This document shows positions 3,377-57,651 of a stretch of DNA of 63,594 nt, piece by piece. The translations under genes were made by a program, and so were the position numbers. The stretch comes from an uncultured Methanosarcinales archaeon (lineage in GTDB: Archaea; Nanobdellota; Nanobdellia; Woesearchaeales; CAZPJY01). The notes under the pieces were generated by a model. That model was not told the origin of the DNA. It saw only the letters and a program-made list of their open reading frames with translations, and ran no database searches. The stretch is from positions 2,079 through 65,672 of the forward strand of contig CAZPJY010000003.1 in the NCBI GenBank assembly GCA_964587045.1, read 5' to 3'. Position 1 is the stretch's first letter, and each line of letters opens with the position of its first letter.

Positions 3377-5176
3377 ATGTTCATGCCTGGGAAAAAGAGT
3401 GTGATCGTGCTATTTTTACTGCTCTTGGCCCCCGTAGCCTTCGCGTGCATCGACGCAAGCGAGTGCCCCTTGCCCGGATGCCCAGGGGCCATCAGGCTAT
3501 GCGACGAGGGGGCCTGCGCCGCCACCCCCTGCATCATATCCGTCGAGGACAACTACGACGAGTACCAGGACTACTTCAACCCAATCGACATACTGTTCGA
3601 GGATGCAAGCCACCACTCCGACATCGAGAGGTCTATCTTCTCCTGGGTGAGGCTCAGCGACCTGCTCGAGCGGATCATCTTCTACATCTTCCTGGGGATC
3701 GGCATAGTGGGTATAGTGTTCCTTGCCAGGGCCGTCAGGGGCAGGAGCCACCACGAGATAGCGATCATCCTGATCATACTCATGTTCGTGCTGGTCGGGT
3801 TTTCCCTCCTCCGCATAATAGAGAGCCTCAACCTCAGCGAGGCCTGGATGGGCACTTCGGTCAAGAGCTTCCAGTTCCCGACCCTCCAGCGCGTGTCGCA
3901 GGACCTCGAACTGCAGTACGGGGTTGAGACTGAGGACCTAAGCGAGGAGGAGCTGGCGGCTTTCTCAGCCCACGCGACCGACGGCATCGAGCTCAGGTGG
4001 ACAGGCAACTTCGAGGACTATGAGGGGAGCATCCTCATATTCGAGTTCGAGAGCACCGCTGCGCTCGCAGAGTACGAGTCCGACCTCGAGCCGCACTTCT
4101 CGAAAAGCAGGGTGGGGACCGAGACGGTCTATTCCATAACATCGTACGACGGGCCTGGGGAGGAGGTCAGCACCAAGGTGTGGTCGGAGGACAGGTACCT
4201 GTTCGTCGCGACCGGGAGGGAAGCGTTCCTCAACAGCTCATTCCACGACGTCTATGCCTTCATCCCGGGCGAGGAGCCGCCAAGGCCTCCGCCAACACCC
4301 CCTTCGCCGTTGAGGGTCGACGATCTCTCCATCACCTTCCTGGACCCGTCTGCAGACGAGGTCACTTCATCACCGACGATAACCTTCCAGGTTCAGGGCG
4401 AGCAGCCAGTGGTGAGGGACTCCATATCCATAATCAACGTGCCGGGATTCATCGACAGGTCCTTGTGCTCTGGCGACGAGTTCTTAGCAGTCTGCGAGTT
4501 CCAGGCGCTGCATTTCAACCAGGGTGTGAACCACGTCACCGCCATCGCCGAGGACATCAAGGGCAGGAAGGCCCGGGAGACCTTGAGGTTTGTCTACGAC
4601 TCCCTGCCCCCGAAAGTTGTGGGCTTCGAGCCAGGCAACAATTCCATAACGCGCGACCCGACCCTGCATCTGAAGCTCGAGGATAAGGGAGCAGGGATTG
4701 CCAACTCGTTCTCGGCCGAGGTGGACGGCAAGGCGTCGGTCGCGTCAGCGGACTGCGATGAGTTTGAGGGCGGCGCCTACTGCAGCGTGACGGTCACCGG
4801 GATAAAGCAGGGGTGGAACATGATCCGCCTTACTGTCCGGGATATGGGAGGCAACAGCGCCGTCTTCGGCCTGCGGTTGCTCTACGACCTTGTCCCGCCT
4901 GTGATAACCGACATCTCTCCTCCGATGCGCGCATCTGTTTCGAGCCCCCGCATAAGTTTCAGGGTCACCGACAGCGTGGCAGTCGACACCGGGTCCATAA
5001 GGGTCGAGGGCATCGGCGGCTTTGAGAACGGGACCGAGCAGTGCTACCAGCAGGGCGAGTCGTACCTGTGCGTGTTCGACGCCGCGGCGAAGAAGGGTTA
5101 CAACGATTTCCGCATCCACGCCGGGGACTACGCAGGCAACGCTGCAGAAGTGTATCACGTGTTCGACTATTACTGA
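3377..5176 (+). CDS. secreted/membrane-anchored surface protein with Cys-rich N-domain, Pro-rich linker and three Ig-like repeats
   Basis: Signal peptide MFMPGKKSVIVLFLLLLAPVAFAC. Internal TM segments. PPRPPPTPPSP linker. Three ~95-aa repeats, each with a Cys pair and ending in (L/V)PP. Confidence 0.6.
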   Translation: MFMPGKKSVIVLFLLLLAPVAFACIDASECPLPGCPGAIRLCDEGACAATPCIISVEDNYDEYQDYFNPIDILFEDASHHSDIERSIFSWVRLSDLLERIIFYIFLGIGIVGIVFLARAVRGRSHHEIAIILIILMFVLVGFSLLRIIESLNLSEAWMGTSVKSFQFPTLQRVSQDLELQYGVETEDLSEEELAAFSAHATDGIELRWTGNFEDYEGSILIFEFESTAALAEYESDLEPHFSKSRVGTETVYSITSYDGPGEEVSTKVWSEDRYLFVATGREAFLNSSFHDVYAFIPGEEPPRPPPTPPSPLRVDDLSITFLDPSADEVTSSPTITFQVQGEQPVVRDSISIINVPGFIDRSLCSGDEFLAVCEFQALHFNQGVNHVTAIAEDIKGRKARETLRFVYDSLPPKVVGFEPGNNSITRDPTLHLKLEDKGAGIANSFSAEVDGKASVASADCDEFEGGAYCSVTVTGIKQGWNMIRLTVRDMGGNSAVFGLRLLYDLVPPVITDISPPMRASVSSPRISFRVTDSVAVDTGSIRVEGIGGFENGTEQCYQQGESYLCVFDAAAKKGYNDFRIHAGDYAGNAAEVYHVFDYY

Positions 5177-18984: not shown

Positions 18985-19107
18985 GGGGCCGTAGTGTAGC
19001 TTGGTCCATCATTCCAGGTCGGGGTTTCGTTGAGGTCAGCCCTCCCTTATGGGCTGCGACGATGAGACGGAAACCTGGCGACCGGGGTTCGAATCCCCGC
19101 GGCCCCA
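18985..19107 (+). tRNA. intron-containing tRNA, best read as tRNA-Pro (anticodon GGG; CGG not excluded)
   Basis: Acceptor GGGGCCG/CGGCCCC plus A73 (Pro-like). D loop has A14, G18G19, A21. Anticodon stem CCAGG/CCTGG encloses 55 nt. T arm CGGGG-TTCGAAT-CCCCG. Splicing at 37/38 gives the loop UCGGGGA. Confidence 0.75.
19025..19072 (+). other. tRNA intron (48 nt, canonical 37/38 position)
   Basis: Relaxed BHB: stem CCAGG/CCTGG, 3' bulge AA|A, central helix UCGG/ACGG (U.G, C-G, G-C, G.A), 5' bulge GG|U, then an intron helix. Internal hairpin CAGCCC...GGGCTG. Confidence 0.6.
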
Positions 19108-20654: not shown

Positions 20655-20777
20655 CCCCACGTAGCTCAATTGGCTAGAGCGTTCGGCTGTAGATTCTCGC
20701 TGACGTACCCTGCGGGTAAGGATGACTGCGAGACAGCTGAAACCGAAAGGTTCCTGGTTCAAGTCCGGGCGTGGGGA
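20655..20777 (+). tRNA. tRNA-Tyr (anticodon GUA), intron-containing
   Basis: C1-G72 pair (CCCCACG/CGTGGGG) plus A73, the archaeal/eukaryal Tyr identity set. Anticodon stem TTCGG/CCGAA. Loop CTGTAG|intron|A. T arm CCTGG-TTCAAGT-CCGGG. Confidence 0.9.
20693..20741 (+). other. tRNA intron (49 nt, 37/38)
   Basis: Lies between G37 (20692) and A38 (20742). 3' junction is GAA|ACC, as in the Pro tRNA. Contains CTGA, hairpin ACCC-TGC-GGGT, GGATGA, an 11-nt spacer and CTGA. Confidence 0.8.
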
Positions 20778-24712: not shown

Positions 24713-27337
24713 ATGGAAGAAGACATGAGACGGATCGTGCACAAGCAGGTCGACACCCTGGTTTTCGGAATACTGTCACCAAAACACATCAAGAAGATGG
24801 CAGCGGCCAAGATTGTGACGCCCGAGCTTTACGACAAGGAGGGCTACCCGGTCGACGGTGGACTCATGGATATCAGGCTCGGCGTGATAGATCCAGGACT
24901 GAGATGCAAGACCTGCGGGAGCAAACTCAAGGAATGCCCAGGACACTTCGGCTACATAGAGCTGGCAAGACCGGTATTCCACGTCAAGCTCATCGCAATC
25001 ATCCTAGACCTGCTAAGGATGACATGCAATGACTGCGGCAGGGTGCTGCTACCGCAGAACAAGATCGGACGCATAAAGAACATGCTCGACAAGCTCCCAA
25101 CAGGAAATGATATAACCGCGCGGCGTAAAGCCGTAAAGGAGCTGATGGGTAAGCTCAAGAGCGCAAGCAAGTGCCCTCACTGCAACTTCAAGCAGATTAA
25201 GATAATGCTCGACAAGCCCACAACCCTCATGGAGGGAGAGAAGAGGCTGTCCCCAATCGAGGTACGGGCGAGGCTGGAGAAGATCAGCGATGACGACCTG
25301 GAGTTGATAGGCTTCTCGCCGAAGCATTTCAGGCCCGAGTGGGCAGTGCTCACCATACTCGCAATTCCGCCGGTTACCATGAGGCCGTCGATCACCCTCG
25401 AATCGGGCGAGAGGAGCGAAGACGACCTGACCCACAAGCTCGGCGACATCGTGAGAATCAACCAGAGGCTGTTCGAGAACATCAACGCCGGTGCGCCGGA
25501 GATCATCATCGAGGACCTTTGGGACCTTCTCCAGTACCACGTTACAACCTTCTTCGACAACGACATCGCCCAGCTCCCTCCGGCGAGGCACAGGAGCGGC
25601 CAGCCCCTCAAGACCCTGACCGCCAGGATCAAGTCCAAGGAGGGAAGGATCAGGCACAACCTGGCAGGCAAGAGGACCAACTTCTCCGCAAGGACCGTCA
25701 TCTCTCCCGACCCAATGCTGAACCTCAACGAGGTCGGCGTGCCTATGGTCGTGGCCATGAAGCTAACCGTTCCAGAGCAGGTGACTCCCTGGAACCTTGA
25801 GTACTTAAGGGAGTTCGTCAAGAAGGGCCCCAAGGAATACCCGGGCGCCAACTACATCGTGAGGCCTGACGGCAAGAAGAAGAAGATAGCGGATGACACG
25901 TGGGAGCAGTGCATCGAAGAGCTTGAGCCGGGCTATACGGTAGAGAGGCATCTCCTCGACGGTGACATTGCGATTTTCAACAGGCAACCTTCACTCCACA
26001 GGATGAGCATGATGTGCCACAAGGTCAAGGTCCTGCCTTATAAGACTTTCAGGCTGAACCCTGCCGTATGCGCGCCTTACAACGCGGACTTCGACGGGGA
26101 CGAGATGAACCTGCACATTCCCCAGACCGAGGAGGCGCGAGCCGAGGCCGAGATCCTGATGGAGGTCCAGACACAGCTCATCTCGCCTCGCTACGGCCTG
26201 TCCATTATCTCATGCAACGAGGACGCCATCAGTGGCAACTACGTCCTCACCAAGGAAGTCCACGTGCCGAGGCACATAGCCCTGGACCTGCTGGTCAAGG
26301 CCGGATTCAAGGACTTCTCCAGGCTGCCAAGGAAGGAAACCATCAGCGGCAAGGAGATCTTCTCGATGGCCCTCCCCGAGGACTTCGAGTTCGAAGGCTA
26401 CTCCAAGGCGTGCAAGGACAACGTCGACCACAAGAAGCTCAAGACCGACTCCTACATCCTGATCAAGAAGGGCATGCTCCTCAACGGGGTCGTTGACAAG
26501 AGCGTGCTGGGATCCGGCTCAGGACTGCTCATCAGGACCATACACAAGAAGTACGGATCCGAAAAGACCCTCGAGGTGCTCAACAAGATATACCGGCTTG
26601 GGTTAGGGACCCTCCTGCTTAAGGGGTTCTCGACCTCGACATCAGACCTCGACATACCCAACGAGGCGACCAACAAGGTCAAGGCGATCGTCGAGCAGGC
26701 TTACAACGAAGTGGAGGACCTGATAAACCAGTACGAGACCCGCACGCTCGAGGCTTTCCCCGGGATGAGCCTGGACGAGACCTTAGAGAGGAAGATACTC
26801 GAGGTGCTGAACAAGGCCAGAAACGATGCGGGCAATGTCGTCATGGCCAATGTCGACCTCAATTCCAACACGCTCAAGATCGTCCAGAGCGGGGCAAAGG
26901 GGAGCTCCATCCACATCGCGCAGATGACAGCCATCGTCGGACAGCAGGCGATGAGGGGAAAGAGAATCCAGAAAGGCTACTATGAAAGGACGCTGTCGCA
27001 CTTCAGGAAGGGAGACCTGCGCCCAGCTGCGCACGGTTTCATCAGGAACTCATTCCGGCAAGGCCTCTCCCCATCTGAGTTCTTCTTCATGGGCATGACC
27101 GGACGTGACAGCTTGATGGACACCGCGCTCCGCACTCCCAAGAGCGGTTACCTCTACAGGCGCCTGGCCAACGCTATGCAGGACCTCAAAGTCGAGTATG
27201 ACAGCACTGTGAGGGATGCAGCAGGAAAGATTGTTCAGTTCCAGTACGGAGAGGATTCAATCGACGTATCCCGCTCGGAGAACGGCAGGGTCAACGTTCA
27301 AAACATTATCGATTCCGTGACAGGTGGTTCAAGATGA
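24713..27337 (+). CDS. rpoA1: DNA-directed RNA polymerase subunit A'
   Basis: Zinc motifs [16 protein letters not shown] and CNDCG. Catalytic loop [11 protein letters not shown]. 874 aa. Confidence 0.95.
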
Positions 27338-46458: not shown

Positions 46459-49269
<2,811 letters not shown>

Positions 49270-49271
49270 GT

Positions 49272-49523
49272 TCACCCGTGCCTCAGCTTCAGGTAAAGAA
49301 TCGACAACGCCAACAACAGTCCCACGCTGTTCATCGCGGCCACGGGTCCGTTTCTGATGATAATCGCGTAGACTATCCAAAGGACTAATCCCACCACATA
49401 GACGACGTATCTCCATAGGCTCAGGTCCCTGGTTTTTTTGGTCTTCCAGCTCTTGATGGCCTGGGGGAGAAGCGATATGACCACGAGGATGCCTGCAGCG
49501 TATCCTAAAATATCAATCCACAT
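49272..49523 (-). CDS. SemiSWEET / PQ-loop sugar transporter
   Basis: 83 aa, three TM helices, with the PQ motif in SLLPQAIKSWKTKKT. Confidence 0.7.
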   Translation of the reverse strand: MWIDILGYAAGILVVISLLPQAIKSWKTKKTRDLSLWRYVVYVVGLVLWIVYAIIIRNGPVAAMNSVGLLLALSILYLKLRHG

Positions 49524-49623
49524 GACCAGGTGAATGGCTTGGCTAACTTAAATACCTTGTGCAAATCGGTGTCTTCCTGGCCTGGGGGAAAAACTTTTAG
49601 GATACCTGTTCTTCCACCGCAGC

Positions 49624-49923
49624 ATGAGAATAGAATACAGGCACAACCTGACGCATGAGGAAGCCTACAGGAGAATCAACAACCTCATAATTGATATGCA
49701 AAGGGAGCATGCTGATAAGATAAGCAATCCCAAGATGAGCTGGAATCACGAACGCACGAGGATGGACTACAGCATGATGATCATGGGGTTCAGCACAAGA
49801 GGGCAGGTCACCTTGAGCGAGGGCAAGATCAGCCTAAAGGGAGAGCTTCCACTGATGGCTAAGATGTTCTCCGGAAAGATCGAGGAAATGGTTAGGGAGC
49901 AGTTAAAGGACCTGCTTGCCTGA
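49624..49923 (+). CDS. hypothetical protein (possibly PHA-granule-region-like family)
   Basis: 99-aa ORF. Weak recollection of similarity to the polyhydroxyalkanoic acid system family. Not verifiable here. Confidence 0.3.
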   Translation: MRIEYRHNLTHEEAYRRINNLIIDMQREHADKISNPKMSWNHERTRMDYSMMIMGFSTRGQVTLSEGKISLKGELPLMAKMFSGKIEEMVREQLKDLLA

Positions 49924-49969
49924 CGCAGGCGAGCAATCTTTTTATACTGCCCGTGCGTTCACGCCTTCC

Positions 49970-50512
49970 ATGGCTGTCACCATCACGTATTTTGTTCACG
50001 GGACCACCACCGACAACGAAAGGCACCTGGCCACGGGCTGGTCTCCTGGAGAGCTGAGCGAAAAAGGCATCGAGGAATCGAAAAAGCTTGCAGCCCAGGT
50101 GTCACACCTGCGCTTCGACGCAGTCTTCTGCTCTGACCTGAAGCGCGCTGTCGATTCCGCCAGGCTCGCGTTCGAAGGCTATCCGATTTTAGAGGACAAG
50201 CGTTTACGCGAGTGCGATTACGGCGACCTCACCGGGCATCCAGCAGGAGAGTTCAAGCCGAACATGGACAAATACGTCGACGAACCTTTCCCGAACGGGG
50301 AGAGCTATCACGACGTCGAGGCGAGAATCGCTGATTTTCTGGGATTTCTCGGAAAGGAATATCCCGGCAAGCACATCGCAGTCTTCGCCCACCAGGCACC
50401 CCAGCTGGCGCTTGAAGTGCTGCTGAAAGGGAGGACGTGGGAGCAGGCCATCGACGAGGACTGGAGGAAAAGGAAGGCCTGGCAGCCAGGCTGGACATAT
50501 GTTCTCAGGTAA
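49970..50512 (+). CDS. histidine phosphatase superfamily (phosphoglycerate mutase-like) protein
   Basis: YFVHGTTTDN, CSDLKRA, RLRECDYGDLTG, NGESY, VFAHQ. The usual RHG triad reads VHG here. ATG 49970 lies about 25 nt after a TTTTTATAC box. Confidence 0.65.
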   Translation: MAVTITYFVHGTTTDNERHLATGWSPGELSEKGIEESKKLAAQVSHLRFDAVFCSDLKRAVDSARLAFEGYPILEDKRLRECDYGDLTGHPAGEFKPNMDKYVDEPFPNGESYHDVEARIADFLGFLGKEYPGKHIAVFAHQAPQLALEVLLKGRTWEQAIDEDWRKRKAWQPGWTYVLR

Positions 50513-50527
50513 ATCTACGCGCAAGGA

Positions 50528-51409
50528 TCAGCGGCACCGACCTTCCACGGTCCTGAGGTCCTTGCTTTCCATGGTAATCTTCCCCGAGCTCACGTCCACG
50601 GAATACTGCCTCCTCACCAGGGCGATCTGGTCGCACAGGCCCCAGTCCCCGATGAAGCCGACAACGTGGTAGATGACATAACGTATTGAGTCCCCGTCCT
50701 CGTAGAGGTAGTGGTCCAGGATGGGATTCTGGCTGCCTGCGCCAGGATGCTCAACATACCACAGGTACTCAATCAGCTCCTTTGCGTTCTCGTCAGTTAT
50801 GGGCCTTTGGCTGAAGGTGCCCAGTCCCTCCTCCTTTTGGAACTTGTCGTACCCCGACTTGTCCAGATAACTGCATTTGTGGACCCTGCTCAGCAGGACG
50901 TCAGAGGGATTTTTGGCATACACCCTCGTGAACTCGAAGTACTTGTCGGTCTCGCGCTCTCCTGTCAGGTTGCGGTAGTACGCGCTGTTCCTGCTCGACG
51001 CTTCGGACCATGCGAGCGCCTGGGTCCTGTTGTCTGTGCAGAGCTCGATCCATTCTAATCCCCGTTCCTTTGGGGGCTTGATGCTGATCGTGTTCTCGTA
51101 GTATATGTTTCCTTGGAGGGTTCCCTCATTGTAGAAGCCAGGTATGTATGACGTCCCGTTGTATGCCGCGTTGAGGATTTCCGCGTCTGTGAATTCGGGA
51201 TCAGGAGGCCGCACGATTGAACGGTCTTGGGCAGGCTCTGTCTCCTCGCCGGTGCCGGGCGGCGGTTCCACCTCTTCCATGTAATGTAAGGGGCCCATTT
51301 CATCTTCATCTGGTTTTGTCTCTTCGGCGTACTGCTGCTGGGCGCATCCACTGATCATCCCAAGTAGGAGGATGCTGAACAGGAGGATATGTTCAATTCG
51401 CATGTTCAT
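50528..51409 (-). CDS. secreted lipoprotein, function unknown
   Basis: MNMRIEHILLFSILLLGMISGCAQQ is a signal peptide with the lipobox ISGC, followed by an acidic Pro-rich linker. Confidence 0.6.
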   Translation of the reverse strand: MNMRIEHILLFSILLLGMISGCAQQQYAEETKPDEDEMGPLHYMEEVEPPPGTGEETEPAQDRSIVRPPDPEFTDAEILNAAYNGTSYIPGFYNEGTLQGNIYYENTISIKPPKERGLEWIELCTDNRTQALAWSEASSRNSAYYRNLTGERETDKYFEFTRVYAKNPSDVLLSRVHKCSYLDKSGYDKFQKEEGLGTFSQRPITDENAKELIEYLWYVEHPGAGSQNPILDHYLYEDGDSIRYVIYHVVGFIGDWGLCDQIALVRRQYSVDVSSGKITMESKDLRTVEGRCR

Positions 51410-51572
51410 ATGCGTGCCGTTCAGAATATTTAAAGATACCCTTTCCACAATTAATCTCAGACGGCTCGCTCTCCATCGCCGACGGCGAAGGAAAAATTAC
51501 CTATGATTTGCGAAGCACCACCTGTCAGGAGAAGGAAGGGTTTGGAGTGTATGGAAGCCTTGGGAAAAGGGT

Positions 51573-51761
51573 CTATTTTCTAATCTTAATTAAAACCGCA
51601 CAAATAATTATGGCGACTATTGAAACCCCAAACATGATCCAGTCATATAGAAGAGCCTGTCGAGTATAAACAATTTTGACGACATTGATCATGCTCATTA
51701 AACCGATCCCAATCCAGAATGCGATGCTCCATTCTAGAACTCTTTTTGATTTATTTAACAT
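51573..51761 (-). CDS. small two-TM membrane protein (paralogue B)
   Basis: 62 aa. WSIAFWIGIGLMSMINVV...WIMFGVSIVAIIICAVLIK. Same layout as the upstream paralogue, with an 11-nt overlap. Confidence 0.5.
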   Translation of the reverse strand: MLNKSKRVLEWSIAFWIGIGLMSMINVVKIVYTRQALLYDWIMFGVSIVAIIICAVLIKIRK

Positions 51762-51948
51762 TCTTCTTTCCTCTTTTCAACAAAATCATGTTTAAAATCA
51801 GGCCAATTACAGCAACTCCTGTTATTAGATAGTTATAAAGTAATATATCACTTTGAGCACCACCCTTTAGATTCATAATCATGTTGATTATACTATAAAC
51901 TCCTCCACCAATCCAAAAACCTATGCCATATTTGTTTAAGTCGCTCAT
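51751..51948 (-). CDS. small two-TM membrane protein (paralogue A)
   Basis: 65 aa. YGIGFWIGGGVYSIINMI...YLITGVAVIGLILNMILLK. Confidence 0.5.
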   Translation of the reverse strand: MSDLNKYGIGFWIGGGVYSIINMIMNLKGGAQSDILLYNYLITGVAVIGLILNMILLKRGKKNVK

Positions 51949-52168
51949 ACATGATATGTAGTGGACCGAATATATAAACTGTCTCCTTTTTGTAATAGTA
52001 AAGAAACTTCAAACCCCCAAAGATTTTTAGCAGATTTTATATTGAGTTTAATCGATGTTATAATACCCGAAGGGCTGAAATTTAGTGCAATGTTCCCGAA
52101 GGAAAATTTTAGAGTTTGGAATTCTGGCCATTATCTTTATATATTTAAATGATTTTTTTAATTATTAG

Positions 52169-52564
52169 ATGAAACCTCATAAAATCCTTTATAAAAATCA
52201 GGAAGATGTTTGGAATAAAGCAGAAGCTAATTTACAGAACTTACTATCAATTTGTGATACTGTAAAAGAAGCTTACGTGTGGGCTTCTCTTGCTGAAGGG
52301 AAATTTGGCGTTTATGAAGAACCATATCGAGGTCAAATTGGTTCAGATATAGACTTAGTTATTGTAATGAAAGAACCAATGCATCTTCCAAAAGATTGGA
52401 AATTTACTAAAGTCGAAAAATCATGGTTTGATTTATATCATTTAGGATATTTTGAATACGAAGGACATAAACACCAAATTGACGGTTTAATTGTTATTCC
52501 ATCTAAACATGATATGAGTAAAATGAAAAAAACATTAGAAGGAAGATCAAGAAAAATATTTTAG
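52169..52564 (+). CDS. minimal nucleotidyltransferase (pol-beta superfamily, MNT-like)
   Basis: 131 aa. GQIGSDIDLVIVM matches the G[SG]...DxD nucleotidyltransferase motif. Confidence 0.65.
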   Translation: MKPHKILYKNQEDVWNKAEANLQNLLSICDTVKEAYVWASLAEGKFGVYEEPYRGQIGSDIDLVIVMKEPMHLPKDWKFTKVEKSWFDLYHLGYFEYEGHKHQIDGLIVIPSKHDMSKMKKTLEGRSRKIF

Positions 52565-52657
52565 GCCGGAATTCTAAATTGAAACTAATCACTGTTATAT
52601 GTTTTTTCTGCAAGAAAAAATCAAATCTAAGAGTTGACAGTATGACGCAGGACACTT

Positions 52658-53170
52658 TTACGTTAATTTCGCTAAAACTTCTTTTAATGTATCTTCTGGG
52701 GGCTTTTTGGTATCTATAATAATAGCATTTTCAGGAATGTTAGAGTCAATATCTTCTTTTTCATCTTCTATATTTTTGCTCTTAACATTTCTATATTCAA
52801 TATCACGTTTTTTCATTTCATTAAGATCTAGATTGAATTGGAACCATAATGATTCGAAGTTATTATTTGAAATAAATTCTTGGTACTTCTCAATAACTTC
52901 CTTATATCTGAATTGACCTTCGATGAAAATGTAGTCGTAATGATCAATTTCTAATAATTTTAGTATTACAATTTTTATAAATTCAACTGAATTTGTATGA
53001 GCTATTAGATCTTTTCCCTTATATTTGAACTGCATTTGCTTTCTAAAATCATCTTCAGAAAAATATGCGCAATCTTTTTTATATTCAACTTTTAAAATTT
53101 TAAGAAGCTTCTTTGTTACTGTAGTCTTACCAACTGCAGGAGCACCTCTGATGAAGATGATTTTAACCAT
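52658..53170 (-). CDS. P-loop NTPase / small-molecule or nucleotide kinase-like protein
   Basis: MVKIIFIRGAPAVGKTTVTKKL (Walker A) and YIFIEGQF (Walker B-like). About 170 aa. The upstream 58 codons of ORF 52658-53344 run into repeat DNA and are not counted. Confidence 0.6.
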   Translation of the reverse strand: MVKIIFIRGAPAVGKTTVTKKLLKILKVEYKKDCAYFSEDDFRKQMQFKYKGKDLIAHTNSVEFIKIVILKLLEIDHYDYIFIEGQFRYKEVIEKYQEFISNNNFESLWFQFNLDLNEMKKRDIEYRNVKSKNIEDEKEDIDSNIPENAIIIDTKKPPEDTLKEVLAKLT

Positions 53171-53244
53171 AAAGATATTATAAAGCCCGCTAGTTAAATA
53201 GTTTTCTAAAGTAAAAGTGTCCGAGTAATATTGCACATATCCCT

Positions 53245-53274
53245 TGTTAAATTGAGTACTTGTATTCGATTCAA
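53245..53274 (+). repeat. 30-nt direct repeat, left copy (flanks the duplicated cassette)
   Basis: TGTTAAATTGAGTACTTGTATTCGATTCAA. Matches 54233-54262 at 28 of 30 positions. Confidence 0.85.
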
Positions 53275-53343
53275 TCGCTGTTAGTCTCCTTTTGCGAAGC
53301 AAAAGTTCGACGAACGTCGTGTGGAGAAAGTTAAAACGCAGCA

Positions 53344-53649
53344 CTACTGAATTAAATTATTCCAATAGCCAGCAACTTCATTAACCGGATCAGTCATCCA
53401 TTCACTTACTGCTGGACAGCTTTTTGCAGCGTGGTAAGCATCGTCATATGCCTTATACGCTTCTCCAATTGCTATATTCAGTAATTTCACTTGTCCTTCG
53501 CTTAATGGAAAAGAATTGATAGTAAAACGTCTGTCATGTATATTTTTACTCAGCACTTTTTTTTGCTCTTCTTCTAGAGGAAGTGAAGCTATCAATCCTT
53601 TCAATATATTAACTTCTTCTGAAAGTCTTTTTTCAAGCGATGCTGCCAT
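53344..53649 (-). CDS. hypothetical 101-aa helical protein, copy 1
   Basis: MAASLEKRLSEEVNILKGL... The ATG lies about 22 nt downstream of a CTTTTATATATCCC box on the minus strand. The ORF track gives a longer 134-aa form starting at 53748. Confidence 0.5.
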   Translation of the reverse strand: MAASLEKRLSEEVNILKGLIASLPLEEEQKKVLSKNIHDRRFTINSFPLSEGQVKLLNIAIGEAYKAYDDAYHAAKSCPAVSEWMTDPVNEVAGYWNNLIQ

Positions 53650-53820
53650 GCTTCTTGGTAAAAAAAAGGGATATATAAAAGTTACTATTCTGAAGAAGCG
53701 ACAACATACAATCGGCGAAAATATGACGGGCTGCATTTTTATTGACACTAATCGCTGTTAGTCTCCTTTTGCGAAGCAAAAGTTCGACGAACGTCGTGTG
53801 GAGAAAGTTAAAACGCAGCA

Positions 53821-54126
53821 CTACTGAATTAAATTATTCCAATAGCCAGCAACTTCATTAACCGGATCAGTCATCCATTCACTTACTGCTGGACAGCTTT
53901 TTGCAGCGTGGTAAGCATCGTCATATGCCTTATACGCTTCTCCAATTGCTATATTCAGTAATTTCACTTGTCCTTCGCTTAATGGAAAAGAATTGATAGT
54001 AAAACGTCTGTCATGTATATTTTTACTCAGCACTTTTTTTTGCTCTTCTTCTAGAGGAAGTGAAGCTATCAATCCTTTCAATATATTAACTTCTTCTGAA
54101 AGTCTTTTTTCAAGCGATGCTGCCAT
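53821..54126 (-). CDS. hypothetical 101-aa helical protein, copy 2 (identical)
   Basis: Identical to copy 1, shifted by 477 nt. The longer form starts at 54225. Confidence 0.5.
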   Translation of the reverse strand: MAASLEKRLSEEVNILKGLIASLPLEEEQKKVLSKNIHDRRFTINSFPLSEGQVKLLNIAIGEAYKAYDDAYHAAKSCPAVSEWMTDPVNEVAGYWNNLIQ

Positions 54127-54232
54127 GCTTCTTGGTAAAAAAAAGGGATATATAAAAGTTACTATTCTGAAGAAGCGACAACATACAATCGGCGAAAATA
54201 TGACGGGCTGCATTTTTATTGACACTAATTCC

Positions 54233-54262
54233 TGTTAAATTGAGCACTTGTATTCGATTTAA
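54233..54262 (+). repeat. 30-nt direct repeat, right copy
   Basis: TGTTAAATTGAGCACTTGTATTCGATTTAA. Confidence 0.85.
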
Positions 54263-54459
54263 CTGTTCATATCGGCAATTGGCCCTAAACCAACAGATTA
54301 CCCAACCTCCCTTATGGAATAGATTTGAATATCTCGAGAATTTCCCAGAAAATAAATAAGAACCTCCTCGGAAAAAAATATTGAATACTACTTTGTAACG
54401 GTCGAGAGCTCCTGTGCTTCCACAACGAATAAATAGCCTAAGATAATCCCAAGAATCCC

Positions 54460-56001
54460 ATGCACGAGAACCTCCCCCACAGCCCCGGCTGCTACCTCTT
54501 CAAGGACGCCCACGGAAACATCATCTACATCGGCAAGGCCAAGGACCTAAAAAAGAGGGTCGCAAGCTACTTCCAGAAGCGCGGCCACGACGCCAAGACC
54601 GGCATCCTCGTCGAGCACATCCGCGACGTCGACTTCATCGCGACCGACAACGAAAAGGAGGCGCTGATTCTCGAACGAACATTGATCCGCAAGCACATGC
54701 CCCGCTACAACATCGACCTCAAAGACTCCAAGAACTACGCCTTCCTCCAGCTAACGGACGAGGACTTCCCCAGGCTGCTCCTCGCAAGGAAGAGGGACGG
54801 CGCAGGCCACTTCTACGGCCCCTTCGTCTCGGCAGAGGAGCGCGACCACGTGCGCCAGGTGCTCAACCGGACCTTCAGGATACGGACGTGCAGGCGCATG
54901 CCCAGGCGCGCGTGCCTGCGCTACCACATCGGGCTCTGCTCTGCGCCCTGCGTAGGCAAGATATCGGAGGCTGACTACGCCCGCGACATCAGGAACGCCT
55001 CCATGGTGCTGAAAGGCAGGACGAAAGAGCTGCTGGACAAGCTGAGGGCAGAGATGGAGATACACTCCGAAGCGCAGAGGTTCGAGTACGCCATGCGGCT
55101 GCGCGACCAGATCTTCGCCCTCGAGCACCTGGAGGAGCGGCAGAAGATGGACCGCGCGCGAAGCTACGACGAGGACGTCATCAGTTACATAGTAAAGGAC
55201 GGGACCGTCCACCTCGCCGTGTTCAAGATTTACAAGGGTACGCTCTCGGCAAAGGAGGAGTACACCTTCGCAGAGAACCCCGACTTCCTCGAGGAGTTCG
55301 CGACAGGCTACTACGAGGAAAAGGTCCCCAAGGAGATCATCGTGCCGAGGAGACTGAGCGACGCGCTTGCCGAGTGGCTTTCAGACAAGAGGGGCGGCAA
55401 GGTCAGGATCACCGTCCCCAAGCAGGGCACGAAAAAGGACCTGCTCTCCCTTGCTGAAAAGAACATCGAGCTAGCGCTCTTCGCAGACGAGATCTCGCTT
55501 GAAGACCTGCAGAAGAGGCTGAAGCTGCAGGAGCGGCCCTCGATCATCGACTGCTTCGACATCTCGCACCTCTCAGGCACCTCGACTGTCGGATCGATGG
55601 TGCAGTTTCGGAACGCCAAGCCGTACAAGTCCAACTACCGGCGCTTCAGGATACGGACTGTGAGGGGCATCGACGACCCGAGGTCAATCGCAGAGGTGGT
55701 CCGCAGGAGGTATTCCCGCGTGATCGCAGAGCAGGACGACCTGCCCAACCTGATAGTCGTCGACGGCGGCAGGGGCCAGCTCAACGCCGCGCTGAAAGAG
55801 CTCGAACTATTGCACCTAAGGATTCCGACAGTCGGGCTCGCCAAGCGATTCGAGGAGGTGCACGTGCCGGGCATGTCCAACCCGATAAGGCTCGAGCGCA
55901 AGTCGCACGCCCTGAAGCTGCTGCAGAGGGTCAGGGACGAGGCGCACCGCTTCGCAATAACCTACCAGAAGCTGCTGCGGGGAAAGAGGGCGCTAGAGTG
56001 A
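54460..56001 (+). CDS. uvrC: excinuclease ABC subunit C, short form without C-terminal (HhH)2 domain
   Basis: GIY-YIG N-terminus (PGCYLFKD...IIYIGKAKDLKKR), UVR-like helix (QRFEYAMRLRDQIFALE), and endonuclease domain ending RDEAHRFAITYQKLLRGKRALE-stop. 513 aa. Confidence 0.85.
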   Translation: MHENLPHSPGCYLFKDAHGNIIYIGKAKDLKKRVASYFQKRGHDAKTGILVEHIRDVDFIATDNEKEALILERTLIRKHMPRYNIDLKDSKNYAFLQLTDEDFPRLLLARKRDGAGHFYGPFVSAEERDHVRQVLNRTFRIRTCRRMPRRACLRYHIGLCSAPCVGKISEADYARDIRNASMVLKGRTKELLDKLRAEMEIHSEAQRFEYAMRLRDQIFALEHLEERQKMDRARSYDEDVISYIVKDGTVHLAVFKIYKGTLSAKEEYTFAENPDFLEEFATGYYEEKVPKEIIVPRRLSDALAEWLSDKRGGKVRITVPKQGTKKDLLSLAEKNIELALFADEISLEDLQKRLKLQERPSIIDCFDISHLSGTSTVGSMVQFRNAKPYKSNYRRFRIRTVRGIDDPRSIAEVVRRRYSRVIAEQDDLPNLIVVDGGRGQLNAALKELELLHLRIPTVGLAKRFEEVHVPGMSNPIRLERKSHALKLLQRVRDEAHRFAITYQKLLRGKRALE

Positions 56002-56439: not shown

Positions 56440-57651
56440 CTAGGCTTTTTTCTCTATTTCAGAAAGGATGTCCTTGACGAACTCGTCTTGGGAAACGACG
56501 TTGACCTTGCGCTCACCGCGTTTCCTTACGGCAACCGAGCCGCTCTTTTCCTCCTTGTCACCTATCACGACCATGTAGGGGATCTTATCCTCGACGAACT
56601 TCATCACCTTGTTGTTCATGGTCGCTGAGTCGAAGTCGGTCTCGACCCTCACGCCCAGCCCGACCAGCTTCTCGACCAGCTTCTCGCAGGACGCGGTGTT
56701 CCTGTCCGTGAAGTTCACGACCTTTACCTGTACCGGCGAGAGCCACAGGGGCAGCTTGCCTTGGGTCTTCTCGAGCAAATAAGCAATGGTCCTCTCGATG
56801 CATCCTATCGAGGAGCGGTGGATCACCATGGGCGTGTGGTCCTTTCCGTCCTCACCCATGTAGGTGAGCTGGAAGCGTCCGGGAAGAGCGAAATCGAGCT
56901 GTATGGTAATCAGCGTGTCCTCCTTGCCGTAGATATTCTTGTACTGGATGTCGAGCTTGGGCCCGTAGAAGGCGGCCTCGTCAGGGGCCTCGGCGTAGTT
57001 GACCTTGATCTTGTCAAGTATCTTCTTCATGGTCGCCTGGGATTCGTTCCACGCTTTGGGGTTGTCGATGTATTTATCCTTGTTCTTAGGGTCCCATTTC
57101 GAGAAACGGTACCATACCTGGTCTATCTTGAATACCTTCATGATGCGCTCGACCTGGTGCAGGACCCGTTCGAATTCGCCCTCAAGCTGGTCAAAGGCGC
57201 AGATGATGTGTGCGTCCGCCAGCGTGAACTGCCTGATCCTAGTCAAGCCCATCAGTTCGCCCCTCTGCTCGTTCCTGAACAGGTTCGCCATCTCAGCGTA
57301 CCTCTTCGGCAGCTCCTTGTAGCTTCTGGTCCTGCTCTTGAATATCATGAAGTGGAACGGACATGTCATGGGACGCAGCGCGAAAGTCTCGTTGCCGACC
57401 TTCAAAACGAACATGGACTCCCTGTAGTGGTCCCAGTGCCCCGATATCTTGTACAGGTCGTTCTTTGCAAGGACAGGCGTTGAGGTGTACTCGTACCCCT
57501 GCTTTAGCTCCTCATCGGTGATGTACCTCTCGATTATCCTCCTCAGGGTTGCGCCCTTGGGAGTGAACAGCGGAAGTCCTGAACCTATGTCTTTTTGGAA
57601 GATGTAGAGGTCGAGCTCCTGGCCTATTTCCTGGTGGCTTTTCATTTCCAT
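56440..57651 (-). CDS. thrS: threonyl-tRNA synthetase, catalytic plus anticodon-binding domains only
   Basis: HQEIGQELDLY..., FTPKGATLRR, ISGHWDHYRESMF, FRNEQRGEL.GLTRIRQFT, and a C-terminal anticodon-binding fold. 403 aa. No N-terminal editing domain. Confidence 0.85.
   Translation of the reverse strand: MEMKSHQEIGQELDLYIFQKDIGSGLPLFTPKGATLRRIIERYITDEELKQGYEYTSTPVLAKNDLYKISGHWDHYRESMFVLKVGNETFALRPMTCPFHFMIFKSRTRSYKELPKRYAEMANLFRNEQRGELMGLTRIRQFTLADAHIICAFDQLEGEFERVLHQVERIMKVFKIDQVWYRFSKWDPKNKDKYIDNPKAWNESQATMKKILDKIKVNYAEAPDEAAFYGPKLDIQYKNIYGKEDTLITIQLDFALPGRFQLTYMGEDGKDHTPMVIHRSSIGCIERTIAYLLEKTQGKLPLWLSPVQVKVVNFTDRNTASCEKLVEKLVGLGVRVETDFDSATMNNKVMKFVEDKIPYMVVIGDKEEKSGSVAVRKRGERKVNVVSQDEFVKDILSEIEKKA

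Follow-up and report, generated by a model that had tools for sequence, protein, structure and literature searches.

Overall organization of the locus

The 63.6 kb segment of archaeal DNA analysed here (63,594 nucleotides of contig CAZPJY010000003.1, positions 2,079 to 65,672; hereafter the window) carries, between its uvrA and uvrC genes, an island of low G+C content at positions 51,570–54,440. The island encodes two paralogous peptides with two transmembrane segments each (2-TM; TM1 and TM2), a nucleotidyltransferase (NTase), a P-loop kinase and, on an exactly duplicated cassette, a helical protein of 101 amino acids (H). The list of open reading frames (ORFs) agrees with the initial annotation on these five protein types. 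The principal genes of the locus are as follows.

46459–49269: uvrA, left flank of the uvrA/uvrC gap
49272–51448: PQ-loop, PHA_gran_rgn, histidine phosphatase and lipoprotein genes, between uvrA and the island; near-host composition
51573–51761, minus strand: TM1, 62 amino acids, 2-TM
51751–51948, minus strand: TM2, 65 amino acids, 2-TM; overlaps TM1
52169–52564, plus strand: NTase ORF, 131 amino acids, Pol-beta-like fold
52658–53170, minus strand: kinase ORF, 170 amino acids counted from MVKIIFIRGAPAVGKT (start MVKII); Walker A motif GAPAVGKT
53344–53649 and 53821–54126, minus strand: H, 101 amino acids, two copies
54263–54459, no strand assigned: transitional intergenic stretch, 39% G+C, containing ATAAATA, a TATA-like sequence, 31 nt upstream of the uvrC start
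54460–56001: uvrC, right flank

The abrupt drop in composition reported initially is borne out at every scale used. The island has a G+C content of 33.0%, compared with 54.9% across the remainder of the window. In windows of 300 nt the G+C fraction is 0.25–0.39 from about 51,500 to 54,350 and 0.52–0.64 on both flanks, and among the 1 kb windows of the whole 63.6 kb only those covering 52,001–54,000 fall below 0.44 (0.286 and 0.362). The G+C fraction at third codon positions (GC3) is 0.17–0.40 for the island genes, against 0.68–0.86 for uvrA, uvrC, the threonyl-tRNA synthetase (ThrRS) gene and the four left-hand genes. The region 51,570–54,440 is a compositionally foreign accessory island. An earlier figure of about 47% G+C for the duplicated cassette needs correction: the 477 bp unit measures 37%, and 45% is reached only by its 71-nt 3' tail. 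The transitional stretch at 54263–54459 could be of host or of foreign origin alike.

No integrase-like ORF is present among the island ORFs, in agreement with the initial annotation. A tblastn search of the window with the XerA protein of L083 (the prefix L denotes loci and contigs fetched for comparison) returned zero matches, and a recombinase signal was also absent from the ten unassigned large ORFs of the window that were scanned. There are no tRNA genes within 30 kb of the island and no repeats longer than 9 nt at its borders. An Rfam scan that covered the island with its flanks, along with five related loci, gave nothing at E <= 1.

Module architecture and junction sites

The island is built of seven head-to-tail modules in the order TM2–TM1, NTase, kinase, J1, H, H, J2. 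These modules and the sites at which they meet are listed below, with a slash marking the boundary within each site.

up to 52057: module TM
52058–52594, plus strand: NTase cassette, 537 nt
52595–53246, minus strand: kinase cassette, 652 nt
53247–53280, minus strand: module J1, 34 nt, without an ORF; repeat family D4, 93% identical to J2
53281–53757: module H1, 477 nt
53758–54234: module H2, 477 nt
54235 to about 54262, minus strand: module J2, about 28 nt (the J2 element itself spans 54233–54262); right end of the array
52049–52060, plus strand: junction mini-site TAATCGATG/TTA (minus strand TAACATCGATT), between the TM and NTase cassettes
52586–52597, plus strand: junction mini-site TAATCACTG/TTA, where the convergent 3' tails of the NTase and kinase cassettes meet
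53238–53249 and 53272–53283: variant junction sites around J1
54226–54237, minus strand: junction mini-site TAATTCCTG/TTA, preceding J2
53273–53749 and 53750–54226, minus strand: exact tandem duplication, 2 x 477 bp, with H gene, TATA box, tail and junction motif TAACAGCGATT

Each of the six boundaries has the sequence TAAT-NNN-TG/TTA or a close variant of it, on one strand and with equal spacing. Read on the minus strand the site is TAACA-NNR-ATT followed by ANNTNCAAT, and it spans 12–20 nt. The string TAACANNRATT occurs five times in the window, where 0.36 occurrences are expected, and all five lie within the island on the minus strand. When one duplicate copy is removed four remain, all on one strand, against a maximum of 2 occurrences in 2000 shuffles of the island alone. 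The repeated junction motifs pointed out in the initial annotation are therefore real, being enriched, uniform in strand and, within the window, confined to the island, and from their positions we read them as cassette boundaries. The 477 bp duplication has its end points within the junction site, in a shared AAT, which places the crossover 5 nt away from the G/TT at which integron cassettes recombine. The junction mini-site is also found upstream of the kinase gene in L121–123, and nowhere else in 1.58 Mb of fetched loci does the 20-mer recur with one mismatch or fewer.

A TATA-like octamer (TTTATATA, or TATTTAA in the case of the kinase) starts 30–33 nt upstream of the start codon of each unit. 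The distance is 30 nt for TM2 (first octamer base at 51978), for the kinase (counted to the ATG) and for H, whose unit also has a structured 3' tail of 71 nt. Such spacing is expected of archaeal promoters giving leaderless or short-leader mRNAs, and leaderless or near-leaderless mRNAs are therefore predicted here. Because each coding module has its own TATA box and 3' hairpin tail, the island genes may well be expressible in a new host without a shared promoter. Within the NTase and kinase cassettes the following elements were located.

52058–52114: element X, leader of the NTase cassette, with two small hairpins
52115–52129: 5' inverted-repeat arm of the NTase cassette, TTTGGAATTCTGGCC
52136: NTase TATA box
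52564–52578: 3' inverted-repeat arm of the NTase cassette, GGCCGGAATTCTAAA
52602–52620: hairpin in the kinase tail
52650–52661 and 53211–53222: 12-nt inverted-repeat arms of the kinase cassette

We note that inverted repeats of 12–15 nt bracket each cassette gene, one arm lying just upstream of the TATA box and its partner at the stop codon. Besides the two pairs in the window (52115–52129/52564–52578 and 52650–52661/53211–53222) there are three in L082 (1036–1431, 1594–2118 and 2356–2751). Between the NTase paralogues of L082 five arm positions differ, with perfect compensation, and the two mismatches of the window copy are potential G–U pairs. Among 108 ORFs of the low-GC loci only the NTase, kinase and GNAT cassette genes are bracketed in this way. 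These repeats were considered as transposon ends and dropped, the homology described below extending past them. Element X recurs in inverted form in L121–123. It belongs to a leader element of about 60–80 nt with two CCCGAAGGG-type hairpins and a TTAGTGCAAYG box (window 52058–52114, L082 ~2251–2300 and, inverted, L121 ~4857–4935), which heads different cassettes (NTase, glycosyltransferase) in either orientation.

The encoded proteins

TM1 and TM2 are paralogues with 34% sequence identity (E 3e-10). Family and profile searches assigned neither to a family, and no relatives were seen at any fetched locus. The AlphaFold2 model of the NTase has a mean predicted local distance difference test score (pLDDT) of 95.9, and its fold matches to ANT(4'), PolX, Cid1 and MNT are weak, with TM-scores of 0.3–0.5. 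The GS...DxD motif (GS-DIDL) is invariant across the NTase family. Pfam Polbeta matches 14 of the 39 family members, the Polbeta and NTP_transf_2 scores being below cut-off, and no match was found among the sequences of the PDB.

The kinase family is matched by AAA_33 and KTI12 (33 of 39 members each) and by Zeta_toxin (23 of 39). The island kinase matches a PHROG polynucleotide kinase (PNK) over residues 1–151 (1e-7) and NCBIfam models of the PRK06762 type (2e-8); its Zeta_toxin score is 18.1 bits against a cut-off of 22.3, with the match confined to the P-loop region. Lys15, Asp40, Arg43, Arg122 and Arg127 are invariant, a set which we take to resemble the pattern of the T4 Pnk kinase. The two enzymes are an AAA_33/PNK-like P-loop kinase and a Pol-beta-type NTase.

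H appeared as an orphan in a word-indexed search, and exhaustive searching gave eight relatives at 30–46% identity. The closest of these adjoins an archease gene in contigs of 30–31% G+C. The model of H is a helical bundle (pLDDT 84.6) and the motif CPAVSEWM is conserved; H has no family assignment and no PDB match in sequence, or in fold beyond generic helical bundles.

Relationship to DPANN archaea

Homologues of the NTase fall into 49 clusters, with amino-acid identities of up to 92%, and those of the kinase into 76, with identities of up to 77%. All of the named clusters belong to Woesearchaeota, Pacearchaeota, Nanoarchaeota or Diapherotrites, that is to DPANN archaea (tiny symbionts named after Diapherotrites, Parvarchaeota, Aenigmarchaeota, Nanoarchaeota, Nanohaloarchaeota). 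The relationship extends to the DNA. The NTase block is 85% identical over 502 nt to L082, L083 and L084 and 81% identical over 392 nt to a further NTase locus, and the kinase block is 77% identical over 668 nt to L085–88 and 75% identical over 581 nt to L121–123. The homology comes in single-gene blocks, each taking in a promoter and a 3' tail and ending abruptly. Searches of viral contigs, phage records and plasmid records gave zero protein or DNA relatives.

The DPANN contigs that align to the island have G+C contents of 22–35%. On the longer of them the NTase and kinase homologues stand amid genes for ribosomal proteins, aminoacyl-tRNA synthetases, Lon, ScpA and CDC48, and they belong to the resident gene complement of small archaeal genomes with low G+C. 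The neighbours of the NTase gene in these contigs are genes for XerA, a GNAT protein or methionyl-tRNA synthetase, or a 206-residue ORF. The kinase gene occurs without an H gene in L085–88, L113–120 and L121–123. Because the NTase, kinase and H genes lie apart from one another in DPANN contigs, the three do not form a conserved operon or toxin–antitoxin pair.

UvrC of the window is at most 58% identical to that of any of 185,579 species representatives, and the housekeeping proteins of the recipient have no relative above 58–78% identity. UvrA, UvrC, ThrRS, RpoA', RpoA'' and Rad50 are each the sole member of their 90% cluster in a collection of about 15 billion proteins; examples of these genes lie at 24713–27337 and 46459–49269 of the window. 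The recipient gene set includes a split RpoB (B''/B'), RpoA', Rad50, Hel308 and aIF6. We note that the recipient lineage is essentially unsampled except for two short contigs from the Joint Genome Institute (JGI).

Insertion site and independent assemblies

In seven of the closest genomes available (L002, L003, L005, L007, L008, L009 and L011) the end of uvrA and the start of uvrC are only ~15–115 nt apart, which upholds the initial statement that the island separates uvrC from uvrA. The island genes are present at none of 80 uvrC loci of relatives, and in other lineages the same gap is filled by different inserts of native composition. Since relatives either keep uvrA and uvrC adjacent or hold other inserts between them, the gap is a variable spot and the four genes at 49272–51448 are an older insertion. 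The GC3 of these four genes is ~0.70, compared with 0.85 for uvrA and uvrC. The initial annotation had proposed looking for an empty site in related genomes: no related locus carries the island genes and the pair is adjacent in seven, but all of the relatives compared are distant (57% UvrC identity). The deviant composition and codon usage, together with the absence of the island from this site in those distant relatives, are the properties of a horizontally acquired island. The hallmarks of mobility, namely an integrase or transposase, a tRNA target and flanking direct repeats, are missing. Two repeat pairs were examined as integration scars and rejected, D5 (51392–51411/54253–54272) and I10 (inverted; 51068–51081/52009–52022); in each the left copy lies within host coding sequence, about 160–500 nt away from the island edge.

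An independent JGI metagenome contig of 2,105 bp (L001) is collinear with positions 54,913–52,332 of the window and, starting in uvrC, crosses the right junction and takes in the H cassette and the kinase gene before ending inside the NTase gene. Identity to the window is 100% across 1164 nt and 99.86% across 1429 nt, with two mismatches; 788 nt of the contig lie on the host side of the right junction and 1,317 nt on the island side. The same JGI sample holds a further contig (L089), which is 99.95% identical to 51,487–49,608 and ends at the left edge of the island. From the extents of these two contigs, the right junction has been assembled independently and the left has not. L001 holds a single copy of the 477 bp unit where the window holds two, so that the copy number of the H cassette either is polymorphic or was collapsed in one assembly. 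Exact look-ups of the lipoprotein and of TM2 returned no record, and the NTase, the 170-residue kinase, TM1 and TM2 are absent from the protein collection under these start codons.

attC-like hairpins in DPANN contigs

In the DPANN contigs, imperfect hairpins of 80–88 nt flank the homologous NTase, kinase and acetyltransferase genes.

L082 836–921, 1450–1537 and 2160–2253: attC-like hairpins
L085 8575–8660: attC-like hairpin
L084 544–631: further attC-like hairpin
L124 6267–6348 and 7062–7150: further attC-like hairpins

The four hairpins of L082 and L085 have z-scores of -3.7 to -5.7, and none of 200 shuffles folds as well. They share TAACA...TGTTA ends, a 2-nt bulge, an inner stem of 10–12 bp and a variable tip. 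In their alignment the end pairs are invariant and compensatory changes are found in 10 of 17 pairs. A covariance model built from the four detected the two hairpins of L124, which lie around a HAD-hydrolase gene, with E values of 6e-4 and 2e-3. The features that define an attC site were found in L082 (three hairpins), L085 and L124 (two), and in no part of the island.

The same contigs show exchange of cassettes at these sites. Identical NTase genes are followed by different DNA in L082 and L083 on the one hand and L084 on the other, the switch coming directly after TAACAT, and the same left flank, ending in CTACCTAATAGATG, is joined at G/TT to the NTase cassette in L082 and to an acetyltransferase cassette in L084. 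The recombinase next to the cassette in L083 scores 226.9 bits as XerA (cut-off 220) and 201 against an integron-integrase cut-off of 265. As judged from their folding and exchange pattern, the DPANN hairpins and cassettes show the properties of integron attC sites, and they apparently represent integron-type arrays beside a recombinase of XerA type, not of IntI type. We also note that L121 (5513–5562) and L123 (634–683) carry identical kinase genes, share 37 nt past the stop codon and then diverge fully after GTTTCAAATCAT, a sharp switch of context at a CAAT-type motif.

The mini-site TAAT-NNN-TGTTA of the island matches the two end boxes (R boxes) of such a hairpin brought together. A dedicated scan of the island for TAAC...GTTA hairpins found none. 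The 3' tail of H was considered as a canonical attC site and rejected, the outer boxes being direct and not inverted repeats. It seems unlikely that six hairpins decayed independently in the host, and the short form of the site was probably already present in the donor lineage, because the spacing is equal at all six boundaries and the mini-site also occurs in L121–123.

Comparison with known systems

Integron attC sites are imperfect hairpins of 57–141 nt with R''/R' (RYYYAAC/GTTRRRY) and L boxes, located downstream of each cassette. Integron cassettes are mostly promoterless and are expressed from the promoter Pc, and a cluster of attC sites lacking integron-integrases (CALIN) needs no IntI. 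The island resembles a CALIN in being an array of small, mostly single-gene accessory modules bounded at a G/TTA core, and its DPANN relatives do so more closely, with their 80–88-nt hairpins, TAAC/GTTA ends, bulge, covarying stems, exchange at G/TT and duplication. It differs in having no hairpin site but only the 12-nt TAAT-NNN-TGTTA core, and in having a TATA box for each cassette, 30–33 nt upstream of the starts. There is also no IntI or attI in the island, and the recombinase of L083 scores as XerA and below the integron-integrase cut-off. Integron cassettes in archaea, Nanoarchaeota included, were first reported in 2022, mostly as integrase-less arrays (CALINs) with acetyltransferases as typical cargo (Ghaly et al. 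2022, PMC9668308).

Islands transferred between DPANN and other archaea have been used to infer symbiont–host pairs (Dombrowski et al. 2020, PMC7414124). The present island is likewise a compositionally foreign block with DPANN affinity in a chromosome that is not DPANN-like, but here the transfer is visible at the nucleotide level and unameliorated, and its direction can be inferred from composition and gene distribution.

A third comparison is with the Xer-dependent dif modules of Acinetobacter plasmids, whose 28-bp pdif sites lie in alternating orientations. The island shares with them discrete accessory modules, short core sites and the lack of an integrase inside, and a XerA gene stands beside one of the DPANN cassettes; its sites, however, are 12–20 nt long and all point in one direction. 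The minimal Pol-beta NTase recalls the HEPN-MNT systems, and the zeta-like P-loop kinase with a small helical protein ahead of it recalls the epsilon/zeta systems, but the partner proteins are either absent or not paired in a conserved way, and the scores lie under the family cut-offs.

Origin of the island

In our view, the DNA at ~51,573–54,262 is foreign and was probably acquired recently by an archaeon of ~55% G+C, one with no close sequenced relative, from a low-GC DPANN archaeon, as a cassette array that is now probably immobilised. Transfer from a DPANN lineage is indicated because composition, distribution and context agree, and the unameliorated G+C content suggests that it was recent. 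The donor is best read as a low-GC DPANN archaeon of Woese-, Pace- or Nanoarchaeota-like type. Since only the core site is left and no recombinase lies nearby, the island most likely derives from a DPANN pool of integron-like cassettes, as a fragment that has lost its mobility. We do not file it as an integron or a CALIN; we call it an array of cassettes with integron-like ancestry, in which the junctions lack hairpins and the genes carry their own promoters.

The sequence of events that we envisage begins in a DPANN genome, where site-specific recombination would have put the array together. Part of that array would then have entered the chromosome of the recipient in the variable uvrA/uvrC gap, leaving no repeats, after which the H cassette would have been duplicated by recombination inside the junction site. 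Having neither hairpins nor a recombinase, the array would now be immobile, and its genes would be transcribed from their own promoters.

Several observations weigh against this interpretation. There is no tRNA gene, recombinase or flanking direct repeat to account for the integration. The island junctions fold no better than shuffled sequences (z -0.6 to +0.9), and within the island the hairpin covariance model, run with filters off, scores no higher than 7.9 bits. Because the junction pattern was chosen after the sequence had been seen, its enrichment figures are somewhat overstated, and the junction 20-mer (<= 1 mismatch) is not enriched in 1.58 Mb of loci outside the island and L121–123. 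A donor genome with the gene order of the island is not in hand; the nearest hint of that order is a 3.8 kb JGI contig on which an NTase gene is followed by genes of 170, 92 and 62 amino acids. The left junction (51,487–52,332) is not covered by an independent contig, L089 ending at the edge and L001 inside the NTase gene. Finally, transfer from a symbiont to its host is only a possibility.

An extension of this interpretation, which we put forward tentatively and regard as rather doubtful, is that DPANN archaea possess a second type of cassette. It would consist of single-gene modules that bear their own promoters and are bounded by a hairpin-less core of 12–20 bp, TAAT-NNN-TG/TTA, followed by a CAAT-type start. 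Such modules would recombine as double-stranded DNA through a Xer-like tyrosine recombinase and not through IntI acting on a folded attC, and the island would be an array of this kind passed from an episymbiont to its host.

The alternative that fares best, and which we nevertheless consider unlikely, is that the island is a patchwork of foreign DNA put together by illegitimate recombination, in which TAACA..ATT is no recombination site but a 3'-end signal (for termination or processing) shared by DPANN genes. The motif does follow a short A/T-rich hairpin, 71 nt from the stop codon in the tails of both the kinase and H genes, it is not enriched at other loci, and the island has no hairpin site or recombinase. 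Against this, the motif also bounds the J elements, which have no ORF, and marks cassettes on their upstream side. It coincides with the end points of the duplication and the breakpoints of DPANN homology, and the corresponding positions in the relatives are taken by the R boxes at the ends of attC-like hairpins, where cassettes have been swapped at G/TT.

The initial annotation likened the content of the island to that of toxin–antitoxin or anti-virus islands. A working module of this kind, with an epsilon/zeta-like pair or an MNT-type antitoxin and the TM peptides as effectors, now appears very unlikely. The kinase family does match Zeta_toxin (23 of 39 members) and PezT (E 0.003), the H gene lies directly upstream of the kinase gene on the same strand, and the NTase resembles the MNT and ANT folds. 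Toxin–antitoxin genes are also frequent in cassette arrays (PMC9668308). Against this, the zeta-like matches are under the Pfam cut-offs and restricted to the P-loop region, H has no match in family, sequence or fold, and the kinase, NTase and H genes stand apart in DPANN contigs, beside housekeeping genes. The epsilon/zeta systems are defined by a zeta kinase scoring at the family threshold and a conserved upstream antitoxin, and the island kinase has neither. No island ORF matches a HEPN toxin (Rx4-6H), leaving the NTase without a HEPN partner, and every gene has its own promoter. PADLOC-DB 2.0 gave for the island only DrmC (4e-4, over 43 residues of a TM peptide) and PDC-S09 (0.046), neither of which is credible.

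It is highly improbable that a DPANN fragment was mis-joined into the host contig during assembly. The contig is metagenome-derived, the JGI contigs break at the left island edge and inside the NTase gene, and NTase-like sequences are common in such communities; but the flanks belong together, uvrA and uvrC being neighbours in relatives, the right junction is crossed by an independent assembly, and two false joins that happened to restore the host gene order would be required. That the island is an old, native low-GC region of the host lineage is scarcely credible: there is no close relative to show the empty site, but the island is missing from all uvrA–uvrC loci examined, its GC3 of 0.17–0.40 is unameliorated, and it is 75–85% identical in nucleotide sequence to low-GC DPANN contigs while the host housekeeping proteins have no relative beyond 58–78%.

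Other features of the window

A 265-residue ORF with a LAGLIDADG_3 domain (1.8e-15) lies at 255–1052, in a kilobase of 45% G+C and directly beside tRNA genes at 1034–1107 and 1147–1219; it may be the remnant of a homing endonuclease or a mobile element. Two further tRNA matches, at 18985–19107 and 20655–20777, are 123 nt long each, which suggests intron-containing tRNA genes. The translation of a ThrRS-like ORF of 403 amino acids (56440–57651) begins at the catalytic core, which would mean a threonyl-tRNA synthetase without the N-terminal editing domain.

Implications

The hosts of most DPANN archaea of the Woese-, Pace- and Nanoarchaeota types are unknown, and DPANN DNA that can be traced at the nucleotide level in the chromosome of another archaeon is a lead to a physical partnership. 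As far as sequence comparison can tell, the island shows integron-type cassettes moving between archaeal lineages and persisting as self-expressed genes, and its hairpin-less junction is a candidate for a simpler cassette recombination site. Should the interpretation as cassettes fail, the locus would be an ordinary but clean example of a small, horizontally acquired island. The finding would carry greater weight if the mini-site proved to be a recombination site or the donor a symbiont of the recipient. If a second type of DPANN cassette does exist and was passed on here by an episymbiont, the island would represent a new recombination system and, at the same time, a genomic marker that ties an unknown DPANN lineage to its host.

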